Source of the DNA: a virus
Taxonomy: Duplodnaviria > Heunggongvirae > Uroviricota > Caudoviricetes
Length of the DNA stretch: 13,501 bases
IMG/VR virus record: IMGVR_UViG_2734482784_000005
Location: 1-13,501 of that record
Direction: 5' to 3' (one strand)
Position numbers and translations under genes: made by a program. Below are positions 1 to 13,501 of the stretch, piece by piece. Within the stretch, counting starts at the first letter, position 1; each line of letters starts with the position of its first letter. The notes beneath the pieces were generated by a model. That model made no database searches. It had not been told where the DNA came from and saw only the letters and a list, made by a program, of their open reading frames with translations.

Positions 1-393
1 TCATATTACTGGATAATCATCATCATCCTTCCCTATCCGATTGATAACGAATGTCACTACCCCGACAACTGTAACATCATCCAGGGCCTCACCTTCCAAC
101 GCTTCACCGTCTCGTGTAATAAATGCCCGGCCCATAATTTTTGCAAAATCAGTGCCGCCGCCGTATTGAATTAAAACGGTATCTCCTTGCTTTGGTTTTA
201 CGAAGCAATCCACTACGGCATAGCCGGTTTCTGTTTGTACTATCCGAGTATTGGGGCCGGTACCGCAGAGTGAATCAACGGTCAGACGCCGTTCAACATA
301 GTCAGCAGCTGGCGACGGAAATCCCACGTTATAGCCCTCCGTTTGGGTTGTATAACTGGAACGTGAGCTCATCGCCTTCCTGCGTTGAGACAT
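1..393 (-). CDS. UmuD-like (peptidase S24 family) protein, 130 aa, divergent
   Basis: Complete ORF (ATG at 393..391, stop at 3..1). Contains GFPSPAADYVE at residues 24-34, matching the cleavage-site region of UmuD/MucA/RumA as I recall it, and a C-terminal GDTVLI...FAKI...VVGVV pattern resembling the S24 fold. I could not find a canonical GDSM serine motif by eye. Sits 9 nt downstream of the 403..560 ORF, which follows a LexA box. Confidence 0.5.
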   Translation of the reverse strand: MSQRRKAMSSRSSYTTQTEGYNVGFPSPAADYVERRLTVDSLCGTGPNTRIVQTETGYAVVDCFVKPKQGDTVLIQYGGGTDFAKIMGRAFITRDGEALEGEALDDVTVVGVVTFVINRIGKDDDDYPVI

Positions 394-402
394 CCCGGAA
401 TG

Positions 403-560
403 TCAGTGCTCTATCCACTGGTTAGCCTGGCGCGGTGACCATATCCAGTTAACTTTTGCGAGTTCCCGGATAAAACCGGACGTTGTCACGGTGCGACGGC
501 CATTAGGCTCAATGACAATTGCCTGACGCCAGGCTATTTCGATATCTGAGTTTCGCGGCA
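403..560 (-). CDS. small hypothetical protein, 52 aa, first gene of a LexA-box-controlled operon
   Basis: ATG at 560..558 preceded by GGAGGTGAAGTT (strong Shine-Dalgarno, about 7-nt spacing). The longer track ORF (to 606) would place the start codon inside the LexA box, so the internal ATG is preferred. No family recognised. Confidence 0.45.
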
Positions 561-579
561 TAACTTCACCTCCCGAAAA

Positions 580-599
580 TACTGTTTTTATATACAGTA
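580..599 (-). promoter_or_regulatory. LexA operator (SOS box)
   Basis: Plus strand reads TACTGTTTTTATATACAGTA; minus strand reads TACTGTATATAAAAACAGTA. This is a perfect CTGT-N8-ACAG palindrome fitting the enterobacterial LexA consensus, 19 nt upstream of the ATG at 560. Confidence 0.7.
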
Positions 600-1103
600 G
601 ATTCATTAAGAGATCTGATCAATACAGGTTCCAGCTATCAATCAGGAACACTGAGGAGGAAACCAGTCACCTTTTAGCCTCTGATATTGGTTTCACTTAG
701 TGATTATGTTGTCTATGTGCCAACTATGAACTATCTTTTCTCAAAACCTGCTACTGCAAAATGGATATAAGATGTCACAGACGGACTTGCTGATTGTTGT
801 TTTTACTCTGGGCATTTTAGCCTTTGGCTATTCCATATGGTTCATTTCGAACAGAATACTTTGCTCTATATTTCATAGACTTACAAAGAATATATGAATT
901 GGGATGGTATAGACCCAAATTCATGGTCATTGCCCCTCGACGTCGGAAGGTACTTACAGATCATCTTCGCTCTTAACCTATCACATCGGCACCTACTCCA
1001 TGATGTAACAGCTCAGACCAGAAATATCTGGAAGCTTTAGGCATATTCTTGGAAGATAGACGAGCGCAAAGACGCACACAGCAATGATGTTATGTAGTAT
1101 TTT

Positions 1104-1135
1104 CCCCTTGAGTGTGCCTGCTCAAGGGGGTTTTT
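1104..1135 (+). terminator. rho-independent terminator (plus-strand orientation)
   Basis: Stem CCCCTTGAG (1104-1112), loop TGTGCCTG, stem CTCAAGGGG (1121-1129), then G plus TTTTT (1131-1135). On the minus strand the hairpin is followed by A-rich sequence, so the plus orientation is favoured. Confidence 0.55.
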
Positions 1136-1172
1136 ATCGCCGTATTGTACTGGCAAATATTTGTAAATAGTC

Positions 1173-1201
1173 TTCACCCCCACGCCTGTCACATCGGCCA
1201 C
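1173..1201. repeat. direct repeat copy A (displaced invertase 3-prime end)
   Basis: TTCACCCCCACGCCTGTCACATCGGCCAC matches 1751-1779 at 25 of 29 positions. On the minus strand it encodes VADVTGVGVKTIYKYLP, a second copy of the invertase C-terminal HTH. Confidence 0.7.
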
Positions 1202-1219
1202 ACGCGACTGGACAGGCGG

Positions 1220-1642
1220 TTAGTCCGGTATGTTTCTCGCGCTACTACTGCTTACGTTAACGTCTGGTAATGATCTAGCGGCGCGACGTAAAGCGGCGTT
1301 GAAAGCAATTATAGTGACCGGCCGGCATTGGTACTTCACACGGTTAGAATGGCTCTGAAATAAAAAAACATCTTCTGGATAGCGTTCTCTTCTACGAGCA
1401 ATGATCCCCTCCACTGGAGGGGTTGATTTAACACGTAGCTCCTTCAGGTGACCCTGTTTTCGTATCAGTATCAAGTCACCATCAATATCATCATATCGAA
1501 TACTCAGCAGCCTTCCAGCGCTTAAACCCGTGTGAAAAATTAACGCCCACAAGTCAGCCCATGTATCTGAGATGGAAACAAGATTGCTGTTAATAGTTAA
1601 AAATTGCTCAAAACTTATTGTTTTCTTACCGTTCACGAACAA
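1220..1642 (-). pseudogene. tyrosine recombinase-like fragment (FimB/phage-integrase-like), no ATG start
   Basis: 140-codon ORF with no methionine codon anywhere (the track start is TTG). The TGLSAGRLLSIRYDDIDGDLILI segment resembles the box I region of tyrosine recombinases, but the downstream His/Arg/Tyr catalytic region is missing. Confidence 0.4.
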
Positions 1643-1719
1643 ACCAAACTGTTTTCAAAGCTGAATGAATTGATTAAGCCAAACGTAACATATCAGGAAA
1701 AGTAGTGAAATCTTTGCCT

Positions 1720-1932
1720 TCAAGTCGCCGGGAGGTACTTGTAGATTGTTTTCACGTCCACGCCTGTCACATCAGCCACCTGCTGCCGGGTAGCGCCGTT
1801 CTCCAGCATTCTGCGGCACCGCTCCACCACTTCTTCAGTCATTATCCGGCGGCGGCCGCCGACTCTCTCCTGCTCCATCGCTGCGGACCGACTCGGATGC
1901 ATTCGGCAAATTCTAGGCCGTGATTTTTCCAA
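1720..1932 (-). pseudogene. Hin/Gin/Pin-family serine DNA invertase remnant (C-terminal HTH only)
   Basis: GGRRRIMTEEVVERCRRMLENGATRQQVADVTGVDVKTIYKYLPAT aligns well with the C-terminal DNA-binding domain of Hin/Pin as I recall it (GGRPRAIT...GHPRQQLA...STLYRYFPA). The N-terminal catalytic domain is absent and the ORF begins with a non-ATG codon. Confidence 0.55.
1751..1779. repeat. direct repeat copy B (inside invertase remnant)
   Basis: TTCACGTCCACGCCTGTCACATCAGCCAC; partner of 1173-1201. Confidence 0.7.
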
Positions 1933-2713
1933 TCCTCTCCATCAGATATGCCAGGATGACATCCAGTGTGCTGGTCCCATATGCATATTTGCCGGGGAAA
2001 ACCAAACATTCTGACAAAACGGATGTTAACGGAGACACTGAACCATTGCCTGCTCCGCCAATACTCATTTTTTGAGACGGGCTATACGCTGGGATTGTAT
2101 AGCCCGTCACTTGTCGGCTGGTCACTGCAGACTGATCTGACCGCTGGTATGCAATTGCATAGGATCCAGCAGCCTTGTTAGAGCACATAACTACAGCGCA
2201 GAATAAAGATTGCCCTATATTGTTAGGAGTAAATGCCAGATCGGCCTCGATCCCTCCATTCAGAAAAATCGGGAATGAACCTGCTGACGTTGTACGAATG
2301 CCGACGCCATGAGGTGTGCTTTCCTGGGTTGCGATAACCGCTCTGTCCTGTGGCGTAGCCGGAAGCGCCCCACCTGGCAGCTGATAGATGAATGCAAAAG
2401 TATTGATGTTTGCGTCCATAACCACCGCCGTATCACCAGCCATGCCGGATGCACCGGAGAAATTAAGCCCCTGCAAAACAGAACCATTCAGCTTTGTGGA
2501 TGGCTCGAGGGTCTCCAGTGACTTGAAAAGTCCGCCATCTAATCGGTTAGAGATAGCTACTACTTTTGCACCAGACCCCATTTTTAGAAACTCTGTCTTC
2601 ACTGGTGTCCATACTGATGGGGATAGTTCTGAGATCGCTTTCTCTGCCGCTGTTTGTGAGTACACAGGGAGTAAGGGGTTATTCAGTCCAGTTAGTGTGT
2701 AAATCAGTCTCAT
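1913..2713 (-). CDS. hypothetical protein, 266 aa, cotranscribed downstream of the tail-fibre-like esterase gene
   Basis: ATG at 2713 preceded by GAGGA; starts 10 nt after the stop of the 687-aa ORF. No family recognised; Gly/Ser/Thr-rich. Confidence 0.55.
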   Translation of the reverse strand: MRLIYTLTGLNNPLLPVYSQTAAEKAISELSPSVWTPVKTEFLKMGSGAKVVAISNRLDGGLFKSLETLEPSTKLNGSVLQGLNFSGASGMAGDTAVVMDANINTFAFIYQLPGGALPATPQDRAVIATQESTPHGVGIRTTSAGSFPIFLNGGIEADLAFTPNNIGQSLFCAVVMCSNKAAGSYAIAYQRSDQSAVTSRQVTGYTIPAYSPSQKMSIGGAGNGSVSPLTSVLSECLVFPGKYAYGTSTLDVILAYLMERIGKITA

Positions 2714-2722
2714 TTTTTATCC

Positions 2723-4786
2723 TCAGAAAACGTTAATACGAAAAGCGGGGAGCCAGTCGTAAAGAGTCACGGATGTGTCATACACCCATATGATTCCAGC
2801 GGAAGATCGAACACACCCTCTTGCACCAAGAGTCCGCCCGGAAGGTTTTACAGATGCGCCGCTCTGAAGTGGGTTTTCTGCTGTCGCATAGGAAACGCGC
2901 CCAAAACGTCCAGAGGGGGCGGTCGCCAGGTTAATCAGCACGCCCTTGCCGTCCGAGCTGATCGCGATGCTCGATATAGCAGGTGGAGCACCAGTCTCAT
3001 CCGTGTAGCTAAAGCCGTAATTGGCCAGACCGGAGGTGTTGATCGTAGTCGTGTCCAGCACCAGGTTCGTATACGCTGGGACATTGATTTGTATCTGCGT
3101 GGGTGAGTTCCACACGAAACTGGTCGGAACCATCCCTGACCAGCCGCTCGTAAACCACTCCTGGAGAAGCGCTCTCGCCACAGCTGCTCCGCGCCGGTTC
3201 TGGCCCGCACACGTCAAGTGCAGACCGTCTGAAATAAAATCGTACTGGTACAAACTATTGACCAGCCTGAATTGCTCTTTTCCGTGCAATCGCGTCGACG
3301 CCAGTCGCGCGTACTGGCCTGTAAATGCACCATGCCCGTCATTGACATACCCCAGCTGGGTAATGGCGATAATCGGCGGTTCGTTTTGACCCGTTCTTGC
3401 GATGATGTCGCTGGTGATTTGTCTCTGGTACTGCCTCATCCGTGATTCATACATTCCTTCTCGTAATCCTGACCAGTCCTCGTCGGACTCTCCCTGCATC
3501 CAGTCAACGCAGAGAACAATCGGCAGCCAGCCGCGTGCTTTACAGGCCGTTACGCAGTCTTCGATTGAATCGAGCAGATACTGATATACCTGGTTACCCC
3601 GTTTCTGGTACTCGTAAGCCTGACCAGACTGCGCACATACGATTGATAGCGTGCGCGGCATGATTCCGGTAGCTGCAGCCATATCGCGAATGAAGGTGTT
3701 CGCGAGGCCGCTTGCGGCCGTTTCTTTATCTGTCCCACTTACTGCCTCAACCAGTGGCACCAGAGTAGTGCTGCGTGTCCCTGTACGCCTAACCCCGCCG
3801 CTGAGCATGAAAGCGTTATCAGGATATATCGGCGTTGCTGCGACAATGGTTTGATCGGCGTCAGGACAATATCCTCGAGCGTTGGATTGCCCAGCAGTCA
3901 CAAAGATAAAACATACAGGCACTGTCTCTGAGTAGGGGTACACAGTAGACCCTGACAAATGAAGTCCATACTCAGGGAGCTGGTTGGCATCATCGTCGCC
4001 ACCACCACCGCCATTTCCGTTATTAACAGCTACCAGGCCACCGTCTGAGTAAATCCAGTGCTTCCCACCAACCGTATAAGCTTCAACGATCTGGTTTGTG
4101 GTTGAATCAACCGTCATCCGCCACACTTTTTCACCGCCAATAAACTGCGGTATAGAACCCTCCCGGCCCAGCGCATAGAGTTCGGATTCTTGTTGGGTTA
4201 AAAGTTCGTAATATTTTCCGTCAGGACCGATTTGAATTAATCTGCCGCTTGTATTTAAAAATGGAGCCACGCGGGAAGTCTCCGGATCATATGCTGCCAG
4301 GGTCACGCTGTCTGGCGATACCTGGTATGCGTAGTCGTCACGAACCATCCGCCGTCCGGTTGGCTGCAGCGTTCCAGCGAGGTTGATATACTCATCGGCC
4401 AGAGAGCTTCCGTCCTGACTGCGGACATAGGTTGTTGAACCTGCCGGAATATTCGCAATATCCGCCTGCGCCGCCGCCAGCGTCATGTACTGCCGGCTGA
4501 GAGGGATCAGGTTTTGGCGGGCTTCATCAATAACAGCGTCGGTAGCAGCTGCCATTTTTTTAGTAGCCCCAATTATCGTATCCTGGGCGTTACCAAAACG
4601 ATCTATAAAAGTATCGCTTTCGCTGTTCAGGAAATCATCGTACGCCAGGGCGTTATCATTCAGATCCTTCATGCTATTTGAAGGTCTTGGATTGCCGGTA
4701 TTATATCTTTTGTCCATACCTGTTCCTGTCTTCATCTTTTCAATGAAGCAATTAAGATTGACGCCCCGCCCCTTCAGGGCTAACAT
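2723..4786 (-). CDS. phage tail-fibre/tailspike-like protein with central SGNH/SASA-type carbohydrate esterase domain
   Basis: Long ORF. AGQSNARGY (GQSN motif typical of the SASA/sialate-O-acetylesterase SGNH family) and a downstream DGLHL (DxxH) motif. A long N-terminal region and a C-terminal beta-rich region fit a receptor-binding tail protein. Start is uncertain: ATGs at 4786, 4735, 4717 and 4672 are all possible; the 4717 ATG has AGGAACAGGT upstream. Confidence 0.6.
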   Translation of the reverse strand: MLALKGRGVNLNCFIEKMKTGTGMDKRYNTGNPRPSNSMKDLNDNALAYDDFLNSESDTFIDRFGNAQDTIIGATKKMAAATDAVIDEARQNLIPLSRQYMTLAAAQADIANIPAGSTTYVRSQDGSSLADEYINLAGTLQPTGRRMVRDDYAYQVSPDSVTLAAYDPETSRVAPFLNTSGRLIQIGPDGKYYELLTQQESELYALGREGSIPQFIGGEKVWRMTVDSTTNQIVEAYTVGGKHWIYSDGGLVAVNNGNGGGGGDDDANQLPEYGLHLSGSTVYPYSETVPVCFIFVTAGQSNARGYCPDADQTIVAATPIYPDNAFMLSGGVRRTGTRSTTLVPLVEAVSGTDKETAASGLANTFIRDMAAATGIMPRTLSIVCAQSGQAYEYQKRGNQVYQYLLDSIEDCVTACKARGWLPIVLCVDWMQGESDEDWSGLREGMYESRMRQYQRQITSDIIARTGQNEPPIIAITQLGYVNDGHGAFTGQYARLASTRLHGKEQFRLVNSLYQYDFISDGLHLTCAGQNRRGAAVARALLQEWFTSGWSGMVPTSFVWNSPTQIQINVPAYTNLVLDTTTINTSGLANYGFSYTDETGAPPAISSIAISSDGKGVLINLATAPSGRFGRVSYATAENPLQSGASVKPSGRTLGARGCVRSSAGIIWVYDTSVTLYDWLPAFRINVF
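4758..4786 (+). promoter_or_regulatory. putative sigma-70 promoter for the HTH/acyltransferase operon
   Basis: TTGACG (4758-4763), 17-bp spacer, TAACAT (4781-4786); upstream of the 4819 start. Confidence 0.35.
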
Positions 4787-4818
4787 CGCCTTACGTGTTT
4801 AAACGGTTAAATAAGAGA

Positions 4819-5082
4819 ATGATTTTAATAAATAAATACACCCCTCCAACGCAGGAAGATTTAGCCAGACTGAAATCCGCACTAAATTACTCCGGAAACC
4901 AAATGGCAGGGCTCGCAGGTGTAGCCAGCGATAGCCAATGGCGGAAATACACTGGCGGAGAGAGCCCCAGGGTAATGTCAAGACACATACTGTTTTATAT
5001 TGCAGCTCAGCTTGTTCTGTCTGATGAGCAACTTAACAATGTAATAAATAAAATGCGCGATATTGGCGCGGAGATAAAATAA
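4819..5082 (+). CDS. small XRE-like HTH protein, 87 aa
   Basis: ATG at 4819 (the track start at 4795 is GTG). The segment NQMAGLAGVASDSQWRKYTGGE resembles an HTH_XRE recognition region. Its stop overlaps the acyltransferase start (TAATG). Confidence 0.5.
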   Translation: MILINKYTPPTQEDLARLKSALNYSGNQMAGLAGVASDSQWRKYTGGESPRVMSRHILFYIAAQLVLSDEQLNNVINKMRDIGAEIK

Positions 5083-6173
5083 TGCTTGGCCTAATAAGGT
5101 TTTTTTTGGCATCGTGCGTCATTGCTTTTCACTTAACGGCTCGCATACCTGCACTTGGCAACTTTGCAGTGAATTGCTTCTATGTTATTAGTGGTTTTTT
5201 AATAACATACATTTTGCATGAAACATACAAGTTCAACTTCTCTATGTTTTGGAAAAATAGAATACTGAGGTTATTCCCGGCATATATATTTTTTCTCGTC
5301 ATGGGCTTTCTTATTATAAAATTAATTCCATCCGCAAAGGAATTCCACTCAAACTGGACAGGCAATTTCTTACCTGGAGATTTATTAGGAAACCTCTTAA
5401 TCTTCCCCTGGGCTTTCCTTTCTGATAATGCTGTAGCAAATCCATTCGGTGCCTTTTCATCCATTTATCACTTTGCTATTGATGGTAATAGATTCAGAAT
5501 AGTCACATCATCATGGTCAGTGGGTGTTGAGATAACATGTTATTTTTTATTGTGGCTTTTCATAGCCCGAAATAAATTTACAGCCATTACGTCGATTCTG
5601 CTTTCACTGCTTTATCATGCTTACGTATATGTAGTACACCATTCTTTTGATATGGCGTATTTCCCATTCCTTGCTGCAACACTTCCTTTTAGCATGGGTT
5701 CTCTGGGTTATTTTGCCCATAGAAAGTTCAAAGCTATGTATCTTTCTCCACACAAAGCTTTTTTAATAACATTTATTTGCATCGGGATTTTTATTACCAA
5801 TTGGCATTTATATACAATTAATCCATTAGGTCAGTACAACATAATACTTTACTACACCAATAATGTAATAGCATTGTTTACAACCCTGGTATTATTAAAA
5901 ATAAAGACAAACATACATCTTGAGAAAATACTCAAGTGGTTTGGTGACCTGGCCTATCCAATTTTTCTTTGTCAATATTTTGGTGGATTTCTAGCATGGC
6001 TTGCTATTGGTGGTGAAAATCGTGGCTTATCCATCTTTTTATTAGGCTACCCAATATCAATTGCACTTGGGATCGTTTGTGTAATATTAATAGACAAGCC
6101 ACTAATTAAAATTAGAGCAAAAATAAGGGCGGACGCTCAAAGCAAAAATAATCAGGAAAACTCTTCAAGGTAA
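5082..6173 (+). CDS. acyltransferase family 3 integral membrane protein (O-antigen/polysaccharide O-acetyltransferase-like, OafA/Oac type)
   Basis: 363 aa, multiple hydrophobic helices, NCFYVISGFLITY (the FxxISGF motif of the acyltransferase-3 family), RBS GGAGA 8 nt upstream. Markedly AT-rich relative to flanking genes. Confidence 0.8.
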   Translation: MLGLIRFFLASCVIAFHLTARIPALGNFAVNCFYVISGFLITYILHETYKFNFSMFWKNRILRLFPAYIFFLVMGFLIIKLIPSAKEFHSNWTGNFLPGDLLGNLLIFPWAFLSDNAVANPFGAFSSIYHFAIDGNRFRIVTSSWSVGVEITCYFLLWLFIARNKFTAITSILLSLLYHAYVYVVHHSFDMAYFPFLAATLPFSMGSLGYFAHRKFKAMYLSPHKAFLITFICIGIFITNWHLYTINPLGQYNIILYYTNNVIALFTTLVLLKIKTNIHLEKILKWFGDLAYPIFLCQYFGGFLAWLAIGGENRGLSIFLLGYPISIALGIVCVILIDKPLIKIRAKIRADAQSKNNQENSSR

Positions 6174-6994
6174 ACTAAACCATTCGCTCCTTTTCCTGAT
6201 GAATAGTTACCATTCCCCCCGGCACCACCTGAGCCGGGGAAACCGCCATCATCGCCAGAACTACCGAAGTGGCCATTGCCACCCGTTGATGAAAATGCAG
6301 CTCCTCCAGCCCCGCCAATAAAAGCATCAGAACCATAATACAGACCACCTTGAGATATTCCGCCAGTAATATTTAAAATGTTCCCGCCACTTCCGATACC
6401 TCCAGCAGGAACTGTAGCCCCGCCACCACTCCCTCCAGTAGCTGAGATTAAACTCCCGAACCTTGTATCACCACCATTCCCGCCTTTAGACGAGACACCA
6501 GCAGCAACAGCACTGCCACCAGTACCTATCGTCACAGATATAGTTTCGTTATCAGAAATATTAAATAACCCTTCCGAAAATCCACCAGCACAACCTCCAG
6601 ATGCGCCCACACTAACTGGAGCATTCTGGCCACCTCCCCCCGCTCCCCAAACTTTCACCCGCACTCTTTTCGTCCCTTTAGTTGGAGTGTAAGTCCCTGA
6701 CTTAGTAAAGGTGACAATATTAAGCAGGCGACCGCCACCAATCGCTTTAAGAACCTGTGAATCATCATCAGGATCAAGCTCAAGCCCCGCGCCCTCAACA
6801 ACGTTTATGTGAACCTCGGCCAGATCTGAGGATGGCCGGGGAACGGCCCGCAGTTGCTCAATAATCGCCGCTCTCGCTGCCTGCTGGAACTTGCGCCCTG
6901 TCTCGCTTACCAGATGCCTGCCTTTCAGCGGTCCCTTGCTCGGGGCGCGCCAGTAACTATTTACGCTCGGTGGAAATGGTAAAGTCAGTTTCAT
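6152..6994 (-). CDS. RusA-like (Holliday junction resolvase family) N-terminal domain fused to a glycine-rich C-terminal region, 280 aa
   Basis: N-terminus MKLTLPFPPSVNSYWR matches the RusA signature (LPWPPSNNRYYR in E. coli RusA). The C-terminal ~170 aa are Gly-rich low complexity. Strong RBS AAGGGGG upstream of ATG 6994, and only 9 nt after the dam-like stop. Confidence 0.6.
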   Translation of the reverse strand: MKLTLPFPPSVNSYWRAPSKGPLKGRHLVSETGRKFQQAARAAIIEQLRAVPRPSSDLAEVHINVVEGAGLELDPDDDSQVLKAIGGGRLLNIVTFTKSGTYTPTKGTKRVRVKVWGAGGGGQNAPVSVGASGGCAGGFSEGLFNISDNETISVTIGTGGSAVAAGVSSKGGNGGDTRFGSLISATGGSGGGATVPAGGIGSGGNILNITGGISQGGLYYGSDAFIGGAGGAAFSSTGGNGHFGSSGDDGGFPGSGGAGGNGNYSSGKGANGLVYLEEFS

Positions 6995-7003
6995 TTAGCC
7001 CCC

Positions 7004-7843
7004 TTAAAGGATCGCTACAACGTCTTTTGCGACTTCCCGCGTACTGCTTTTGCAGGAGATCGAACGGCGCGCGTTGATGAATTGCAGGTTAAAACCATGC
7101 TCCCGGTACAGGTCGAGAACCTTCGGTGCAGATGAGTTAGAAATCACTACCCGAGCCCCACGGTGAAAGGCTGATACGCATTGCTTCGCCAGGTCTACCT
7201 GGTTCTCCCAGTTAAAACCACCAGCGGCGTAGGCGGTGAATCCGGTTGTTCCCGGCATCGGTTCGTAAGGCGGATCGCAGTAAACCACATCCCCTTTCCC
7301 GGCCAGGCTGATTGTCCGGCGGTAATCAGCCGTCATGAATACGCAGTTATGCGCCATAGCCGCGAAGGCTTTCATCTCATCCATCGGGTAATACGGAGCC
7401 TTGTAGCCTCCCCAGCCCACATTGAACTTGTTCGCCTGGTTGTAGCGCATCAGACCATTGAAGCAATGCCGGTTGAGATACAGGAATGCAGCTGCGCGTT
7501 CAGTAGCATCCAGCGTCTGAGAGTTGAACTCGGAACGGATCAGCTCATAGCGCTCTGGTGACCGCATGTGCTCGAACATCCAGCGGGCCTTCAATTCCAC
7601 TTCATCCGGCACGACCGCTAACATCTGATACAGATTAATCAGGTCCGGGTTAACGTCCGCCAGCAGGTAATCTGCGTGCTTTTCGCTGTTCAGGAATACC
7701 GACCCACCACCAACGAATGGCTCTACACGAACTGCACCGGCCCTGCTCCACCAGGAACTGGCCGCGCTACAAGTTGCGACCTGCGGTATTGTGTTGATAA
7801 ACTGTTCATGCGTTAGTAATCTCCACTGATAACGGCACGCCAC
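7004..7843 (-). CDS. DNA adenine methyltransferase, Dam/D12 class
   Basis: EPFVGGGSVFLN (motif I, FxGxG) near the N-terminus and VVYCDPPY (motif IV, DPPY) near the C-terminus, in Dam order. There is no in-frame ATG upstream of motif I, so the start is either GTG at 7843 or the gene is damaged. Confidence 0.75.
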   Translation of the reverse strand: MACRYQWRLLTHEQFINTIPQVATCSAASSWWSRAGAVRVEPFVGGGSVFLNSEKHADYLLADVNPDLINLYQMLAVVPDEVELKARWMFEHMRSPERYELIRSEFNSQTLDATERAAAFLYLNRHCFNGLMRYNQANKFNVGWGGYKAPYYPMDEMKAFAAMAHNCVFMTADYRRTISLAGKGDVVYCDPPYEPMPGTTGFTAYAAGGFNWENQVDLAKQCVSAFHRGARVVISNSSAPKVLDLYREHGFNLQFINARRSISCKSSTREVAKDVVAIL

Positions 7844-7870
7844 GACGCCAGGAGCTGCAACTCGCTGGCG

Positions 7871-8323
7871 TCACTTCTTTTTGCGTGAAAAAAGCGTGAT
7901 GATTGCGGCAATCTCTTCTTCACGAGCTGCCAGGTGACGGCGGTGATGCACCATGATTTCTTCGGCCTCGTGCCTTTCAATAACGCCATCTTCAAGCGCC
8001 TGTTCGATAATCTGATCAACCTGCCCCCTGGCGGCAGAGGTACGCATTGCCCGGCTAAACAAGTCCACGCGGTCCAGTTCTTCCAGGTGCGGAACATCCA
8101 CCAGCAGAGCACCACGACGGCGGGCAAAATATTCAGCCAGGTGAGATGTATTCGAGATGTCCTCCATCGCTTCCAGTTCGCTGACTTCGAAGAAACGACA
8201 GCCGTTTTTCTCGTAAAGGTTGTTGTTAAACTGCGTCACCGTCATTCCCAGTGCGCCAGCCATTGCTTCGCGCCCACCTGGATATGCTTTGCACATAGAT
8301 TTCACGACTTCTTTGAGGTTCAT
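7871..8323 (-). CDS. CII-like/YdaT-like regulatory protein, 150 aa
   Basis: ATG at 8323 preceded by AAGGAG. Lies directly downstream of the Cro-like gene, the position YdaT occupies in Rac-type prophages. Family assignment is by architecture and loose similarity. Confidence 0.6.
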   Translation of the reverse strand: MNLKEVVKSMCKAYPGGREAMAGALGMTVTQFNNNLYEKNGCRFFEVSELEAMEDISNTSHLAEYFARRRGALLVDVPHLEELDRVDLFSRAMRTSAARGQVDQIIEQALEDGVIERHEAEEIMVHHRRHLAAREEEIAAIITLFSRKKK

Positions 8324-8351
8324 ACCTACTCCTTTCAAACTCGGGTGGTAG

Positions 8352-8615
8352 TTACAAATTTGATGCAGTGACATTAAGCTTTCGCATTGCTGCACCTCTT
8401 AAATAGGCCCAGTCAATGTCAGGACGAAGCTCTTCGCAGGTGACAGCACCACCAGTAGCTTTCTCAATCGCAGGACATCGTTCCGCAGGTATTTGCCTAA
8501 TGCCCGTTGTCCATTGATTCACTGTTGGTGATGAGATGCCTAGATTCCTTGACAAAGCGGCTTGTCCCCCAACAATGCGGCAGGCTTCACTGATTGCTTC
8601 AAGGCTACTTCTCAT
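8352..8615 (-). CDS. Cro/YdaS-like HTH regulator, 87 aa
   Basis: ATG at 8615 with AGGA upstream. The segment LSRNLGISSPTVNQWTTGIRQIPAERCPAIEKATGG is typical of YdaS/Cro-type HTH proteins. Divergent from the cI-like gene across an operator-containing intergenic region. Confidence 0.65.
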   Translation of the reverse strand: MRSSLEAISEACRIVGGQAALSRNLGISSPTVNQWTTGIRQIPAERCPAIEKATGGAVTCEELRPDIDWAYLRGAAMRKLNVTASNL

Positions 8616-8649
8616 AAACGGATTCCTATGATTTCCACACAAGCAGATA

Positions 8650-8724
8650 TTAGGCTAAGCCTAATAAACAATCAATAGGAATTGCCTAAGCTATAGGTTA
8701 TGAGGATTATTAGGCAATGCTTAG
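8650..8724. promoter_or_regulatory. OR-like operator region between divergent cI-like and cro-like genes
   Basis: Perfect palindrome TTAGGC-TAA-GCCTAA at 8650-8664, a related half-site GCCTAAGC near 8684-8691, and TTAGGC-AAT-GCTTAG at 8710-8724. Confidence 0.5.
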
Positions 8725-9193
8725 TGGTAAAGAATTGGGCCGAGCGATCGAGCAGGCCATAGACAAGAAGCTTTCAATAGGTTCTGCCAAGAGTAAGGCG
8801 GAAATCGCACGTCATTTCAAAATAAAACCCCCATCAATCCATGACTGGATCAATAAAGGCTCCATATCGAAAGAGAAGCTACCAGAGCTTTGGAACTACT
8901 TTTCTGATGTTGTGGGCCCCGAGCACTGGGGACTAAAGGGATACCCGCTAACTGATACATGTGAGCCCGCAACAGATCCCATAGTTAAAAATGGTTCTAT
9001 TGACGAGCTCTATAATAAGGCTTCGAGAGAAAAAAAGGCTATCATTGATTTTGTCCTCTTAGAGCAAGGACAGCGTATACCTGGCTGGGTAGATAGCGAT
9101 GCTAAAGCATATTTAGACTCATTAGAGATGAAGATAAGGAGATGGGCAGAGCAGGAGGAAGATGGAAAAAAACAAACGAAAGCCAGAGCTTAA
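8717..9193 (+). CDS. cI-like/RacR-like prophage repressor, 158 aa, HTH with no S24 peptidase domain
   Basis: N-terminal HTH (KAEIARHFKIKPPSIHDWINKGSI), RBS GAGGA 10 nt upstream, divergent to the cro-like gene. Size and gene order match the RacR-YdaS-YdaT arrangement. Confidence 0.65.
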   Translation: MLSGKELGRAIEQAIDKKLSIGSAKSKAEIARHFKIKPPSIHDWINKGSISKEKLPELWNYFSDVVGPEHWGLKGYPLTDTCEPATDPIVKNGSIDELYNKASREKKAIIDFVLLEQGQRIPGWVDSDAKAYLDSLEMKIRRWAEQEEDGKKQTKARA

Positions 9194-9363
9194 GCTTATA
9201 TGGTCTAACGGACAATATCTCTAAGCTCCATACATGTTAAAAGCTCTGAGATTGATTCGCTTGCATAACTCAATCCCTGTGGGGGATTGGCTTGTATGAA
9301 GCCTATCCGGGATTGTGACTTGCTTTGATTTAACAGCAGGTTTTCACTTTGCATGGAGGATGC

Positions 9364-10518
9364 ATGGAAAACTTCAAAGTACGTCTTAAAAATCACATTG
9401 AACATGTTAAAAATGTTAGAGAACACTGCACAACGGAAGAGACAACCAAGCAGGCTTTGATACTTCCTTTTTTGGACATCCTAGGCTTTAACGCATATGA
9501 TCCGCAAAAAGTCAAAGCTGAATATGGTGCGGACTTCCCTGGTGTGAAAGTGGGTGAGCGTGTAGATTATGCTCTATTCTGCCAAGGTGTTCCCGTTATG
9601 TTTATTGAGGCCAAAGGTTGTAAAGAAAAAATGGACAACCATTGTCCTCAATTATCTAGGTATTTTAATTCTACTCCTGAGGTGACAATATCAGCAATTA
9701 CTAATGGAATTGAATGGCGCTTTTTTACGGATCTCAATGAAAAAAATATAATGGATTCAACGCCATTTTTACGAATCATGATGGATGACATTAAAGATTC
9801 TGATGCTGAGCAATTATTTAGATTCCGCCATGACAAATTCAAACCAGAGGCCCTAAGAACCCTTGCAGAAGAGAGTGTTTATATTTCTGCATTTGTTAAA
9901 GTCGTGAGTACAAGCCTTCGGGAAGTAGATCATGAATTTGTTAGATATGTTGCAGGACGAGCAAATATTGGTCGTCAATTAAATCAAAGATTTATAGAAA
10001 CAATAACTCCATTGGTGAGGCAGGCCGTAGAGAGGTCAGTAAGTGAAATGGTTGTTTCTGGTCTTTCATCAAGAACATCTATTCCTGAATTAGAATCCCC
10101 TGCTGATGTAACTGAAAATAATGTAATTGATGAGCGCGCAGATATTGTCGATGCAGAGAACCCCAACATAGTAACAACCTATAATGAAAGAATTTTATTT
10201 GAAAAAATCTGTTCTATTATAGGCCCTGCATACGAACTTCAAGCCAAAGATACAGAGTCCTATTACTCTATTCTTTTCCAAGGAAAAACAAACCGCTGGC
10301 TGGTTCGCTATTATGACAAGAAGAATCGCTCAAACATACAGTTACCAATTGATATCAATGAAATAACCGGTAATGAAATTAAAAGAGCCGGACTTGAACA
10401 TGATAACAATCGTATTTTCATTGAACATCCCGAGGATGTATTAAGGATTTCAGGTTTAATCCTTGATTCTTTACAATATGTACAGAATGATGAGAATTTC
10501 AGAAAGCGTCGTCCATAA
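9364..10518 (+). CDS. standalone HsdR-N-type PD-(D/E)xK nuclease domain protein, 384 aa, with uncharacterised C-terminal domain
   Basis: ATG at 9364 preceded by GGAGGA. N-terminal ~130 aa follow the type I restriction HsdR N-terminal nuclease pattern: TKQALILPFLDILGF ... RVDYALF ... VMFIEAKG ... QLSRYF ... ITNGIEWRFF (D...EAK...Q..Y..TNG..W). AT-rich. Located between the cI-like gene and the pL/OL-like site. Confidence 0.7.
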   Translation: MENFKVRLKNHIEHVKNVREHCTTEETTKQALILPFLDILGFNAYDPQKVKAEYGADFPGVKVGERVDYALFCQGVPVMFIEAKGCKEKMDNHCPQLSRYFNSTPEVTISAITNGIEWRFFTDLNEKNIMDSTPFLRIMMDDIKDSDAEQLFRFRHDKFKPEALRTLAEESVYISAFVKVVSTSLREVDHEFVRYVAGRANIGRQLNQRFIETITPLVRQAVERSVSEMVVSGLSSRTSIPELESPADVTENNVIDERADIVDAENPNIVTTYNERILFEKICSIIGPAYELQAKDTESYYSILFQGKTNRWLVRYYDKKNRSNIQLPIDINEITGNEIKRAGLEHDNNRIFIEHPEDVLRISGLILDSLQYVQNDENFRKRRP

Positions 10519-10547
10519 TCATAAAAACACTAGCTTTATTTCACACA

Positions 10548-10575
10548 AATCCCGCTTATGCGGGATTTTTTTTGA
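10548..10575 (+). terminator. rho-independent terminator downstream of the nuclease gene
   Basis: Stem AAATCCCGC (10548-10555), loop TTAT, stem GCGGGATTT (10560-10568), followed by a T-run (10569-10573). Confidence 0.7.
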
Positions 10576-10588
10576 CCGCCGACCAACA

Positions 10589-10631
10589 TTAGGCTAAGCC
10601 TATTGACATGACATTAGGCATAACCTAACAT
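10589..10631 (+). promoter_or_regulatory. pL-like promoter with two OL-like operators
   Basis: TTAGGC-TAA-GCCTAT at 10589-10603 and TTAGGC-ATA-ACCTAA at 10614-10628, the same palindrome family as the cI/cro intergenic region. TTGACA (10604-10609), 16-bp spacer, TAACAT (10626-10631). Confidence 0.5.
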
Positions 10632-10927
10632 CAAGTGAGTCTGATGGACTATGTCATCTTGGCGGCACCAGTTTCCCCATTGTTTCTGGTTCGCCCTTTT
10701 ACAAAAGACATCAGAGCACCACCGAGTGACGTGCCCTAACACAATCCGCCCGAGCGGATTTGCGGCCGCAGGTGCTCTTCTGTGTTGTGTGGAGAACTAA
10801 CGTACCGCCATTGCAGTGGCGGTCCCCCATCAGCAAGAAATTTTAACCAGCTATTCACCCATTCTCATGGGTTGGGTTGCTGCACCCTAAATTTACGCGT
10901 TGCAGAGCGTCAGATGGAGAACAAAAG

Positions 10928-11227
10928 ATGGCTAAGACAGCAAAACAACTGATTAAACAGGCGTACGAAATAGCCAAAACTATGCCACCAGAACAGGCAG
11001 CAATCATCAAGGAACTGGCTACCGTCCTCGATGTTTCGAATGTAGCTCTGCGCCAGACGCGCACCGAACGTGACGCCCTTCTTGCAGAGGTCAAATCATG
11101 GGCGAAAGAGTGTGATCGCCTGACCGAGCGACACACCAAGAATCGCACAAATATGCATGTTCTAGAGGCTATGCGCGTTTTGAAGGCAATTTGCCCCACC
11201 AGCTTCCGTAACGTGGAGGCTCTCTGA
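10928..11227 (+). CDS. hypothetical protein, 99 aa
   Basis: ATG at 10928 with GGAGA upstream. Stop overlaps the start of the ParB-like gene (TGATG). No family recognised. Confidence 0.5.
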   Translation: MAKTAKQLIKQAYEIAKTMPPEQAAIIKELATVLDVSNVALRQTRTERDALLAEVKSWAKECDRLTERHTKNRTNMHVLEAMRVLKAICPTSFRNVEAL

Positions 11228-12012
11228 TGGCTAAAGACTCAAAGCTGGTATATGGCGCGAGTGGCAAAACGAACGTTTTAGCGTTTGAACCTGAAAAACT
11301 GCACCTGGTTACCGACAAAACGCACCCGCTTTACGATGAGCGTATCCACCTGCCTATCAGCGAGGCAATGGTGCTGAACATCATGGACCAGGGCGTTCTT
11401 GAGCCGATTATCGTCTGGAAAGACCCGGAAACAGGGCTGTCTTGTGTGGTTGATGGTCGCCAGCGTGTGCGCCATACACTGGAAGCCAATAAGCGTCTGT
11501 CAAAATTGGGCAAAGAACCGTTACTGGTTCCGGGAGTCCCTAAACGTGGCTCTGCCATTCGCATGGCGCAGGCGATGGTAAGTGCTAACGAAATCCGCCA
11601 GGCAGATACGCCGCTAGGCCGAGCAAAGAAAATGGCTGATGCGCTGGAGCGCGGGCACGATGAGGATGATTTAGCGCTGATGTTTGGCGTGAGTGTCCAG
11701 ACCGTACGCGCAACTCTGTCACTGCTGGATGCCACCCAAGCTGTTCGCGATGCAGTGGAGTCCGGAACGGTCACTGTTACCCAGGCGCGTCAGTTGGCAT
11801 CGCTTAAACCCGAAGAGCAACGGGAGAAGGTCAAGCAGATCGAGACAGCGACCGCCGGCACCACGGGCCATGAAAAAGCTCGGCGTCAGCGTCAGATCCT
11901 CGGTGATGCAAAGCCGCGCCTGAAAACCCGCAAAGAAATTACAAAAGCACTCGAAGATGCCAGTGGCGAATATGCCGAGGCTCTGCGCTGGGTGCTTGGG
12001 GAGGCGCAATGA
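11227..12012 (+). CDS. ParB-like nuclease domain protein (ParB/Srx fold with C-terminal HTH), 261 aa
   Basis: VVDGRQRVRH resembles the ParB N-terminal domain motif; LALMFGVSVQTVRATLSLL is HTH-like. Translationally coupled to the upstream ORF. Confidence 0.65.
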   Translation: MAKDSKLVYGASGKTNVLAFEPEKLHLVTDKTHPLYDERIHLPISEAMVLNIMDQGVLEPIIVWKDPETGLSCVVDGRQRVRHTLEANKRLSKLGKEPLLVPGVPKRGSAIRMAQAMVSANEIRQADTPLGRAKKMADALERGHDEDDLALMFGVSVQTVRATLSLLDATQAVRDAVESGTVTVTQARQLASLKPEEQREKVKQIETATAGTTGHEKARRQRQILGDAKPRLKTRKEITKALEDASGEYAEALRWVLGEAQ

Positions 12013-12143
12013 ATTTTGAACCTGAGAATTACAGCAAATACACCCTGCGTCGGCTCGCCGCCCTGTTAGATGTGATCTGCTGGGTGCTGATTGCCGTAGT
12101 AACCGTTGGTATCTGCATGTTTATTGAATGGTGGACAGCATGA
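12009..12143 (+). CDS. small hydrophobic protein, 44 aa (MNFEPENYSKYTLRRLAALLDVICWVLIAVVTVGICMFIEWWTA)
   Basis: Below the ORF-track size cut-off; translated by hand. ATG 12009 overlaps the ParB-like stop (ATGA), with GGGGAGG 5 nt upstream. One predicted transmembrane helix. Confidence 0.35.
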   Translation: MNFEPENYSKYTLRRLAALLDVICWVLIAVVTVGICMFIEWWTA

Positions 12144-12298
12144 GCAACGTAACCAAACCAACCAGCAAGGGGAAATTTGATGGGGCAGTTGATTACCTCT
12201 GCTCCGATGAGGCTCGTTTTCTGGTTATGCGGGGCGACTATAGCGAAGCAGATATTATCCAAGCGTCTGTATCCCAAGATGTGATTGATGCTGAATGA
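12140..12298 (+). CDS. small protein, 52 aa, in the excisionase position directly upstream of int (MSNVTKPTSKGKFDGAVDYLCSDEARFLVMRGDYSEADIIQASVSQDVIDAE)
   Basis: Translated by hand. ATG overlaps the preceding stop (ATGA), GGTGGA 5 nt upstream, and the 3-prime end overlaps the integrase start. No excisionase motif recognised; the assignment is positional only. Confidence 0.35.
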   Translation: MSNVTKPTSKGKFDGAVDYLCSDEARFLVMRGDYSEADIIQASVSQDVIDAE

Positions 12299-13262
12299 GT
12301 GGATGCCGAAGGGTGTGTTTTTCCGCCCTTCCGGTTACTACTGGAAGCCAGGAGGTACTACCGAGAATCTAGCCCCAGCAAACGCTTCTAAAGCGGAGGT
12401 TTGGTTAGCTTACGAGAAAGTCGTTGAAGGTCGAAAAAAACTACTCACCTTTCAACAATTGTGGAAAAAATTTTTAAATAGTGCTGACTATGCAGACCTT
12501 GCCCCCAGGACACAAAAAGATTACCTGGCACATGAAAAATACTTGTTAGCGGTTTTCGGCGATGCAGAAGCAAAGGCCATTAAACCAGAACACGTCCGAC
12601 GCTACATGGATGCACGTGGTAAAAGAAGCCGTGTTCAGGCTAATCACGAGCATAGTTCAATGTCTCGTGTATACCGCTGGGGTTATCAGCGTGGTTATGT
12701 ACCAGGTAATCCGTGTGTTGGTGTCGATAAGTTTCCTAAACCCCAGCGCGACCGCTACATAACTGATGAAGAGTACATAGCTATCTTCACTCATGCGACA
12801 CCTGCAGTTAAAGCCGCGATGGAAATTGCGTATCTTTGCGCTGCAAGGGTATCTGATGTTCTTAAAATGAACTGGAATCAGATTCTTGATAAAGGAATTT
12901 TCATACAGCAAGGTAAAACTGGTATTAAACAGATCAAAGCCTGGACTGAGCGTCTTAGTGCGGCTGTGGATATTTGCAGGGAATGGGGACAGGATGGCCC
13001 TGTTATCAGGACAATGTATGGTGAGCGTTATTCATACAAGGGATTTAATGAAGCATGGAGAAAAGCGAGAAACGCGGCTTCTGAAGAACTTGGTAGGCCA
13101 CTTGATTGCACCTTCCATGATCTAAAGGCTAAAGGGATCTCAGACTATGAAGGATCTGGCAGGGATAAGCAAAAATTCAGTGGTCATAAGACAGAATCAC
13201 AGGTACTTGTTTACGACAGGAAAGTTAAAATCAGCCCCACGTTGAACAAGAAAATGAGATGA
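12288..13262 (+). CDS. int: lambda-family tyrosine integrase
   Basis: 324 aa. N-terminal GVFFRPSGYYW resembles the lambda Int arm-binding region (NLYIRNNGYY). C-terminal HDLKAKG and HKTESQVLVYDR fit the His and Tyr catalytic motifs. Adjacent to the tRNA gene. Start could be ATG 12288 or ATG 12303. Confidence 0.85.
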   Translation: MLNEWMPKGVFFRPSGYYWKPGGTTENLAPANASKAEVWLAYEKVVEGRKKLLTFQQLWKKFLNSADYADLAPRTQKDYLAHEKYLLAVFGDAEAKAIKPEHVRRYMDARGKRSRVQANHEHSSMSRVYRWGYQRGYVPGNPCVGVDKFPKPQRDRYITDEEYIAIFTHATPAVKAAMEIAYLCAARVSDVLKMNWNQILDKGIFIQQGKTGIKQIKAWTERLSAAVDICREWGQDGPVIRTMYGERYSYKGFNEAWRKARNAASEELGRPLDCTFHDLKAKGISDYEGSGRDKQKFSGHKTESQVLVYDRKVKISPTLNKKMR

Positions 13263-13269
13263 TTCTTTG

Positions 13270-13301
13270 GCGTCGGAGCATGCTTCGGCGCTAGAATTTT
13301 T
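13270..13301 (+). terminator. putative terminator after int
   Basis: Hairpin GCGTCGGAGC-ATG-CTTCGGCGC (with G-U pairs) followed by TAGAATTTTT. Confidence 0.4.
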
Positions 13302-13374
13302 CTCAGTGGATTTTCTCAATTTTTCTCATCGGGATGCAGGTCACTGAAAGGGAATGCTGTAAGTGTTTGAATAG

Positions 13375-13464
13375 TGGCGGAGAGAGGGGGATTTGAACCC
13401 CCGGTAGAGTTGCCCCTACTCCGGTTTTCGAGACCGGTCCGTTCAGCCGCTCCGGCATCTCTCC
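13375..13464 (-). tRNA. serU: tRNA-Ser (anticodon CGA), 90 nt including CCA
   Basis: Minus strand reads GGAGAGATGCCGGAGCGGCTGAACGGACCGGTCTCGAAAACCGGAGTAGGGGCAACTCTACCGGGGGTTCAAATCCCCCTCTCTCCGCCA: 7-bp acceptor stem, CGA in the anticodon loop, long variable arm typical of tRNA-Ser, TTCAAAT T-loop. Confidence 0.9.
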
Positions 13465-13501
13465 GTTCAGATGGTTGCCATGATGCCAGGAAATTTGGCA
13501 T

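Follow-up and report, generated by a model that had tools for sequence, protein, structure and literature searches.

The left end of a 13,501-nt stretch of tailed-phage DNA (IMG/VR record IMGVR_UViG_2734482784_000005, Caudoviricetes, positions 1 to 13,501; hereafter the window) carries a small open reading frame (ORF) and a UmuD-like gene behind one LexA box, and raises the question whether such a pair belongs to a umuDC-type operon, to the induction switch of the element that carries it, or to some other system. An earlier note, made from the sequence alone, had described the pair as an SOS-controlled operon with a divergent UmuD-like protein, offering an antirepressor module of the element as the alternative. 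The cassette is neither a umuDC operon nor the induction switch of the island. What stands here is a degenerate copy of an orphan UmuD′ cassette of the HumD type, in a variant that is common but uncharacterised; in the window its partner gene is knocked out and the UmuD′-like half alone is intact. The reading that we favour, with somewhat better than even confidence and on the strength of sequence comparison, is that a umuD-type operon gave rise to a mobile accessory ('moron') cassette of the HumD kind, repressed by LexA and probably acting on the host DNA polymerase V (Pol V) and RecA*. The coordinates of the features are collected in Table 1.

Start and catalytic site of the UmuD′-like protein

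The second gene had been taken for a 130-aa protein with a GFPSPAADYVE motif, and such an ORF does run from base 393 to base 1 on the minus strand, nine bases past the stop of the small ORF, with the motif at residues 24-34. However, the protein most likely starts within this ORF, at GTG 327, which would give a product of 108 aa that opens with (M)GFPSPAADYVE and has the already 'cleaved' UmuD′ form, because GTG 327 is preceded by GGAGGG, the homologues start with MGFPSPA and the upstream extension is not conserved. Thus, the homologues of the phages mEp390, phiES15 and Midgardsormr38 and those of plasmids start MGFPSPA at a position overlapping or abutting the stop of the small gene, and among the best 150 of 220 representative clusters the alignment begins at residue 1 in nearly every case. 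The alleles of E. coli MIN9 and L37 contain a 1-nt insertion that shifts the upstream ATGs out of frame, and five of the six substitutions found between the E. coli alleles in the stretch 328-393 are synonymous in the frame of the small gene. In the intact alleles the GGAGGG is part of the 3′ end of the small gene, and only 1-2 nt separate the stop of that gene from the GTG start, so that translational coupling of the two genes is implied.

The protein matches PHROG 3469 ('UmuD-like') over its full length (E 1.1e-49) and also PHROG 811 (E 1.7e-9). Its alignment by hhalign with P1 HumD is likewise full-length (98.2% probability, E 4e-14), with a 10-residue gap over AADSHHREGI, while that with UmuD covers residues 25-99 and has a 12-residue gap right behind the Ser60 position, in agreement with the earlier estimate, made by eye, of a region about 12 residues shorter than in UmuD. 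HMMER places Ala at Ser60 of UmuD, the detectable similarity being limited to residues 2-53. In the family alignment (MAFFT, 77 representatives out of 220 clusters at 50% identity), the UmuD residues 58-68 are gapped in 75-77 of the 77 sequences. All three methods therefore agree with the suspicion that the catalytic serine is absent: the nucleophile of the GDSM motif is either Ala or falls within the 10-12-residue deletion. The general base Lys97 is missing as well, its column being occupied by Ala in 45, Gly in 15 and Val in 9 of the 77 representatives and by Lys in none. The lysine that had been called conserved does not stand at this position but aligns with UmuD K98, where Lys is found in 29 of 77, a one-residue shift of the alignment being possible.

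Across the short UmuD′-like family the catalytic dyad is, as judged from these alignments, lost. Moreover, there would be nothing to cleave in the protein, because it starts with the residue just after the UmuD cleavage site; no Ala/Cys-Gly cleavage site behind a removable N-terminal segment was found, the extension reading ...YN-V-G at the corresponding place. The description as a non-cleaving UmuD-like protein is thus borne out by the deleted nucleophile loop, by a general-base position that is not Lys and by the start at the post-cleavage Gly. A cleavable UmuD with a divergent dyad was considered and rejected on account of the same start, the unconserved extension and its substitutions being mostly silent in the other frame. 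The GFPSPAxDYxE arm is nevertheless the most conserved segment of the family, though nothing is cleaved.

The S24 beta-barrel fold is predicted to be kept. The top 20 Foldseek matches of the AlphaFold model are all S24 structures (the C-terminal domains of LexA and lambda CI, UmuD′ and UmuD-RecA), with probabilities of 0.92-1.0 and template modelling (TM) scores of 0.4-0.6, the best of them (the LexA C-terminal domain, UmuD′ and UmuD-RecA) reaching probability 1.0 and TM 0.5-0.6. In the model, the helix-turn with Ser60 between strands 1 and 2 seems to be swapped for a tight turn.

The UmuD′-like gene is under purifying selection, with a ratio of nonsynonymous to synonymous substitution rates (dN/dS) of 0.07-0.08 against the MIN9 and L37 alleles; the value of 0.33 against the very close EcU1 allele comes from 10 changes only. 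Between the window and the MIN9 and L37 alleles the synonymous divergence is 0.17-0.25 in the small gene and about 1.35 in the UmuD′-like gene, which places a recombination junction at the gene boundary and makes the cassette a mosaic. A 141-aa relative combines the short dyad-less core with a UmuD-like cleavable N-terminal tail (...LFSDSMQCG|FTSPAADYVE) and appears, by sequence, to be a hybrid of the 5′ end of a host-type umuD and a phage-type core.

In 26 of 34 full-length representatives the protein ends with acidic residues and then P-x-(I/V/M/F), an ending without counterpart in UmuD; it reads KDDDDYPVI in the window (bases 1-30), DDCPVI in P1 HumD and ...DDSPF in some other members. The acidic C-terminal tip of SSB, DDDIPF, looks similar to this conserved tail.

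The predicted SOS promoter

The LexA box of the cassette is the sole such site in the 13.5 kb, and no match arose in 200 shuffles. It had been described as a perfect palindrome 19 nt upstream of the small ORF. The arms TACTGT/ACAGTA are indeed perfectly palindromic, but the central AT stretch is not, and the distance to the ATG is 18 nt. All 20 nt of the box agree with the umuDC operator of E. coli K-12. The window and the K-12 umuD promoters have in common the hexamer TTGATC, a spacer of 17 nt and the -10 element TACTGT, with about 23/28 identity further upstream; TTGATC stands at equal spacing in phiES15 and mEp390 as well. Comparison with K-12 thus finds here the umuDC-type arrangement in which the LexA operator overlaps the -10 of an SOS promoter. 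Since a generic sigma-70 scan did not call the promoter at its thresholds, the promoter assignment rests on this homology.

A CTG-N10-CAG box precedes the cassette in 14 other loci, namely in HS, PCN061, MIN9, EcU1, mEp390, phiES15, Midgardsormr38, Kp4882-3, Kp4862-1, Kp4865-1, Kp4871-1, Phi06_2987S, PDP110P1 and pENT-c88. In two further copies, one in a chromosomal prophage of E. coli L37 and the other on the IncX3 plasmid pEC27-NDM-5, the insertion sequence ISKox3 sits at the identical position of the LexA box (window 594-599). The junction reads ...CAAGGGAAGACCC|ATAT(G/A)(C/A)A(T/A)ACAG, the target sequences of L37 and pEC27-NDM-5 being different, and the insertion takes away the left half-site of the box together with the -10. 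This sequence pattern suggests that ISKox3 targets this SOS operator, and the insertion may have uncoupled the cassette from LexA.

Absence of umuC and the known relatives

A umuC-like gene had been expected just beyond the left edge of the window. The genomes that contain the window have there, past base 1, about 200 bp followed by a partial copy of tRNA-Ser (attR) and then yodB, and tblastn with K-12 UmuC gave nothing in the window, in nine cassette-carrying phage genomes or in the plasmid flanks. An ordinary umuDC operon was rejected, no umuC being found downstream or in the carrier phages examined. Of 5426 complete E. coli genomes, 5423 have umuC in the chromosome, so that a host partner is available.

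The closest characterised likeness is that with P1 HumD (and N15 gp26), also an orphan with a UmuD′-form start (MGFPSPAADYVE), LexA-controlled, without adjacent umuC and carried by a temperate phage; the ...DDxPVI type of C-terminal tail and the full-length profile match add to it. The GenBank annotation of P1 humD states that it 'functionally complements E. coli UmuD′' and shows a LexA box 19 nt upstream and no umuC; the complementation is said to go back to McLenigan et al. in 1999. The window gene shares with this type the translation in UmuD′ form, with a HumD model match from position 1, and the LexA box without adjacent umuC. The differences are that HumD has 129 aa and keeps, by alignment, residues at both dyad positions (DS...IKR), whereas the window protein, of 108 aa, is without the Ser60 loop and shows Ala in the K97 column, and that no small gene stands between the LexA box and humD.

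With E. coli umuDC and UmuD′ the locus shares the operator, a homologous promoter, an identical GFPSPAADYVE arm and the S24 fold, but it is without umuC, the cleavable 24-residue tail, Ser60, Lys97 and 10-12 residues of the core. The 'umuD' of IncX3 plasmids and their conjugative relatives (such as pEC27-NDM-5 and pENT-c88) is similar in its LexA box, in a 79-aa protein of about 68% identity, in the orphan UmuD′ form and in the absence of umuC, and differs in that its UmuD′-like protein is of the long HumD type, with 127 aa. In the blaNDM IncX3 plasmids the UmuD′-like gene is usually cut by IS26, with ISKox3 in front. The impCAB operon of TP110, with a LexA box, a small first gene, a UmuD-like and a UmuC-like gene, resembles the cassette in placing a small gene before the UmuD-like one, but contains a polymerase gene, a cleavable ImpA and a DinI-like ImpC. 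Profile searches with the small protein of the cassette gave no DinI-like match, and the likeness to impCAB is one of architecture alone.

Distribution of the cassette in phages and plasmids

The cassette with its LexA box lies between the tail-fibre genes and attP/int in mEp390, phiES15 and the Erwinia phage Midgardsormr38, and it is found also in many Klebsiella, Enterobacter and Escherichia phages and in one phage-plasmid. The cassette of the Klebsiella phage Kp4882-3 has 93-99% protein identity to that of the window, its small protein being 98.7% identical to the intact E. coli form. In Kp4865-1 and Kp4871-1, the LexA box stands directly ahead of the UmuD′-like gene and the small gene is absent, as in P1 humD. 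The UmuD′-like gene is thus the constant part of the cassette, and the small gene is optional. The allele of the window recurs with 100% conservation in 14 complete genomes of differing origin.

Among plasmids, the small protein occurs in 1,091 records, 955 of them conjugative. In pENT-c88 the LexA box is followed by the small gene and then by the 127-aa HumD-type protein, which starts MGFPSPA. In IncX3 plasmids such as pEC27-NDM-5 the pair forms the 'umuD' of the ISKox3-umuD-IS26 context that has been described in the blaNDM literature. The cassette is distributed independently of immunity type and of element type. According to a recent survey, the role of umu-like genes on plasmids remains unclear. 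A paper on the Gifsy-1 genes STM14_3218-3220 is unrelated to the cassette.

In mEp390 and in the Escherichia phage Eeyore, a divergent DinI-like gene adjoins the cassette, with the LexA box in the shared intergenic region, and two RecA*-related SOS genes may thus be placed there under a single operator.

The small upstream gene

The 52-aa ORF had been reported with a strong ribosome-binding site, and both are present, GGAGG standing 7 nt upstream of ATG 561. However, the ORF is a truncated allele of a 79-aa gene: three other E. coli alleles have 7 extra bases at the 405/404 junction and encode a 79-aa product, and the Prokaryotic Genome Annotation Pipeline (PGAP) labels the gene 'frameshifted' in HS and PCN061. 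The window copy ends after helix 3, and the deletion costs the most conserved segment of the family, the C-terminal TFRDVSTQEGExRTFxxFNPNGG.

The intact 79-aa protein is a stand-alone winged-helix-like protein, with the a1-b1-a2-a3-b2-wing-b3 topology of such domains. Its family comprises 118 clusters, exclusively from Enterobacterales, and belongs to PHROG 3893, annotated as of unknown function. Pfam and NCBIfam searches with the protein gave no match, a sequence profile search of the PDB gave chance-level matches alone, and PADLOC matched neither the small nor the UmuD′-like protein. The small gene is under purifying selection (dN/dS 0.13-0.18). An excisionase role of the winged-helix protein near attP was set aside, since the carrier phages have their own xis by int and plasmids carry the gene.

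In NCBI and UniRef the 79-aa family, with over 100 clusters and on about 1,000 plasmids, bears the name 'DNA polymerase V'. The protein has no similarity to UmuC or UmuD, and the name looks like a misannotation spread from the neighbouring gene.

Possible roles of the cassette

By the favoured reading, DNA damage would lead, as the operator suggests, to RecA*-stimulated cleavage of LexA and to derepression of the cassette promoter. The UmuD′-like protein would then be made directly in the 'activated' form, from the Gly after the UmuD cleavage site, and, because it is synthesised in this form, would need neither RecA*-mediated self-cleavage nor the Ser/Lys dyad, both of which are lost. By analogy with P1 HumD it would most probably dimerise and engage the host UmuC and RecA*, and a translesion complex of the Pol V type would thereby be formed or tuned in the course of SOS, the winged-helix partner being an optional accessory that would bind protein or DNA. 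Several points weigh against such a role. The binding of LexA and the activity of the promoter are predictions, and no functional study of the cassette, the short family, the partner protein or the IncX3 umuD was found in the literature consulted. The UmuD′-like protein has no Pfam match (PF00717 included) at E <= 0.01, and with NCBIfam HumD (NF051876), where 120 bits are required, it reaches only 33.7 bits and matches no more than model positions 1-27; its AlphaFold model is of moderate confidence (predicted local distance difference test score, pLDDT, 77, with about 60 in the N-terminal arm). The retention of UmuC binding is an assumption, because 10-12 core residues are missing and the C-terminal half, with a conserved ITxDGEAIEGEALDD absent from UmuD, is remodelled in comparison with the 129-aa HumD. 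Finally, a strongly conserved partner on more than 1,000 plasmids is superfluous in the HumD model, which hints at a function beyond the replacement of UmuD′.

The main rival, unlikely in our estimate, is that the pair modulates the SOS response or acts as a decoy: the dead S24 domain would bind the RecA* groove in which LexA, CI and UmuD dock, or heterodimerise with UmuD or UmuD′, and would thereby tune the cleavage of LexA, of the repressor or of UmuD, or block Pol V, from which the mobile element would profit; the winged-helix partner would target or regulate this domain. DinI-like and PsiB-like genes fill the niche of RecA* modulators on phages and plasmids. Such a role would agree with a dyad that is lost in a gene yet under strong purifying selection, with the conservation of an uncleaved arm and with the presence of the UmuD-RecA filament complex 8gmt among the top Foldseek matches; it is also favoured by the DinI-like genes that share the LexA-box region in mEp390 and Eeyore, by the Gifsy and phage 186 LexA operons, which likewise pair an effector with a RecA-filament binder, and by the carriage of the pair on conjugative plasmids, where the role of umu-like genes has been called unclear. 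However, direct evidence for it is absent, and P1 HumD, the sole characterised relative, is annotated as promoting and not blocking UmuD′ function. The present evidence cannot separate this reading from the HumD-type one. A more speculative proposal, which we hold to be rather doubtful, makes the pair a dedicated SOS-timed two-protein effector, in which a winged-helix adaptor and a pre-trimmed, dead S24 'decoy' would jointly act on RecA* filaments, on the host UmuD/UmuC or on SSB-partner proteins and so reprogramme the damage response of the host during prophage induction or plasmid establishment; the conserved acidic ...DDxP(V/I)(I/M) C-terminus recalls the SSB tail. Quite improbable is a decaying remnant without function in this strain, whose UmuD′-like ORF would merely be not yet degraded. 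The frameshifting 7-bp deletion, the loss of the structural genes, the RusA, integrase and HTH (helix-turn-helix) fragments of the island and the higher dN/dS against EcU1 fit with decay, but the promoter, the LexA box, the Shine-Dalgarno sequence and the 108-aa frame are all intact, the allele is unchanged in the 14 genomes, other phages keep the UmuD′-like gene without the small one, and the family-wide dN/dS is low.

The remaining alternative, that of the earlier note, is an induction module in which a small LexA-controlled antirepressor, like GfoA/GftA, Tum or AntC, inactivates a RacR-type repressor and the UmuD′-like protein replaces a DinI-like partner. Lemire et al. (2011) showed that small antirepressors under LexA control inactivate the Gifsy repressors, which are related to DicA and RacR, and that the operons encoding these antirepressors lie at a distance and also contain a gene for a DinI homologue. 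The likeness of the cassette to the Gifsy dinI-gfoA-irsA, phage 186 tum and N15 antC loci consists in a LexA-box operon away from the immunity region, with a small protein and a RecA-related partner, and in a window repressor of the RacR/DicA type that such antirepressors target; as had been noted, this repressor has no peptidase domain, and the only LexA box of the window is that of the cassette. What still speaks most strongly for an induction role in certain hosts is the Cronobacter phage phiES15, which is UV-induced and has an HTH-only repressor of 134 aa, the LexA box of the cassette being the sole one in its 40 kb. In contrast to these systems, the cassette is found for the most part on plasmids and beside S24 repressors that cleave themselves. 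Thus, seven of nine cassette-carrying phage genomes encode HTH+Peptidase_S24 repressors (mEp390, Kp4882-3, Kp4871-1, Kp4862-1, ENT1, klb_E and PDP110P1), and because of this the antirepressor reading is unsupported; six phages with the small gene, Kp4882-3 among them, are of this kind. The small protein is conserved beside repressors of unrelated types, although an antirepressor would be expected to vary along with its target; it is carried by plasmids, which have no lysogeny switch, and it is missing from some phages that have the LexA box and the UmuD′-like gene. The matches to PHROG 3893, 2341 and 2381 are all of 'unknown function', and neither PHROG nor PADLOC annotation ties the small protein to an antirepressor; the annotated libraries gave no homology to known antirepressors, the sequences of GfoA, GftA, Tum and AntC not having been compared directly. 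In the window itself the small protein could not act, because its gene is truncated. An antirepressor module is accordingly disfavoured by the survey of repressor types and LexA boxes in whole phage genomes, an induction module is not supported as the general function of the cassette, and as an explanation of this locus it has little probability.

Temperate phages and epidemic resistance plasmids very commonly carry orphan umuD-like genes, and this locus shows a sub-family that has discarded the peptidase machinery and yet stays under strong selection and LexA control. If the cassette boosts or redirects the host Pol V or RecA*, it would bear on stress-induced mutagenesis in strains that carry such phages or IncX3 blaNDM plasmids; if the two-protein effector were true, a function would be given to the orphan 'umuD' of the IncX3 carbapenemase plasmids and to the misnamed 'DNA polymerase V' family. 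The window itself, a prophage remnant with one half of the cassette broken, is of modest biological weight, and the cassette family is weightier.

The source island and its other features

Bases 1-1100 of the window recur with 100% identity in the chromosomes of E. coli HS, PCN061 and a dozen further strains, while anything similar to them is found in 58 of 5426 complete E. coli genomes; the full window matches PCN061-type strains except for insertion sequences. The island is a prophage remnant of about 13.7 kb in a tRNA-Ser gene beside yodB. From the tRNA-Ser it contains, in order, an integrase, a ParB-like and an endonuclease-like gene, the RacR-type repressor, a YdaS/Cro-like gene, YmfL, Dam, a RusA fragment, tail-fibre-region genes, an integrase fragment (1220-1642) and the cassette, which is its final gene pair before the partial tRNA copy.

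Table 1. Positions of the annotated features in the window
Feature	Position	Strand	Basis or remark
Orphan UmuD′-like gene, probably 108 aa, GTG 327 to stop 3-1	1..327	-	HumD-related short family without the S24 catalytic dyad
Shine-Dalgarno GGAGGG, 7 nt before GTG 327	335..340	-	sequence; kept in all four E. coli alleles
In-frame upstream extension (22 aa) of the 130-aa ORF, probably outside the protein	328..393	-	not conserved
Truncated small gene, 52 aa + stop; intact form 79 aa	403..561	-	ATG 561, stop 405-403; PHROG 3893
Junction of the 7-bp deletion (TATGTGA or ATGTGAC lost), creating the premature TGA 405-403	404..405	-	alignment with three other E. coli alleles
Predicted LexA box TACTGTATATAAAAACAGTA	580..599	-	differs from the 20-nt consensus at 2 positions; its first six bases (599-594) also serve as -10
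Predicted -35 hexamer TTGATC of the umuDC-type SOS promoter	617..622	-	homology to the K-12 umuD promoter
RacR-type repressor	8717..9193	+	NCBIfam RacR equivalog, E 4.3e-76, above cut-off
tRNA-Ser (CGA), the other attachment-site end of the island	13375..13464	-	ARAGORN and Rfam; annotated PCN061 and HS loci

The RacR-type repressor gave no Peptidase_S24 match in Pfam. The internal integrase fragment is on the minus strand and matches PHROG 19751 / PHROG 1, and further decay is seen in an HTH fragment and the RusA fragment (1705-1932; 6994-7004 region). Between Dam/RusA and the tail-fibre region no head or tail gene is left, and E. coli HS has at the same site a full-length prophage with head and baseplate genes. 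The endonuclease-like (PHROG 4225) and ParB-like genes lie on the plus strand (9349-10518 and 11227-12012) between the repressor and the integrase; neither protein was matched by PADLOC, and the PCN061 annotation gives the former as a type I restriction endonuclease. The Rfam scan of the whole window found the tRNA alone, with nothing near the ORF at 772-897. This ORF, on the plus strand between the cassette promoter and the integrase fragment, encodes 41 strongly hydrophobic aa (MSQTDLLIVVFTLGILAFGYSIWFISNRILCSIFHRLTKNI) and looks like a small membrane peptide.

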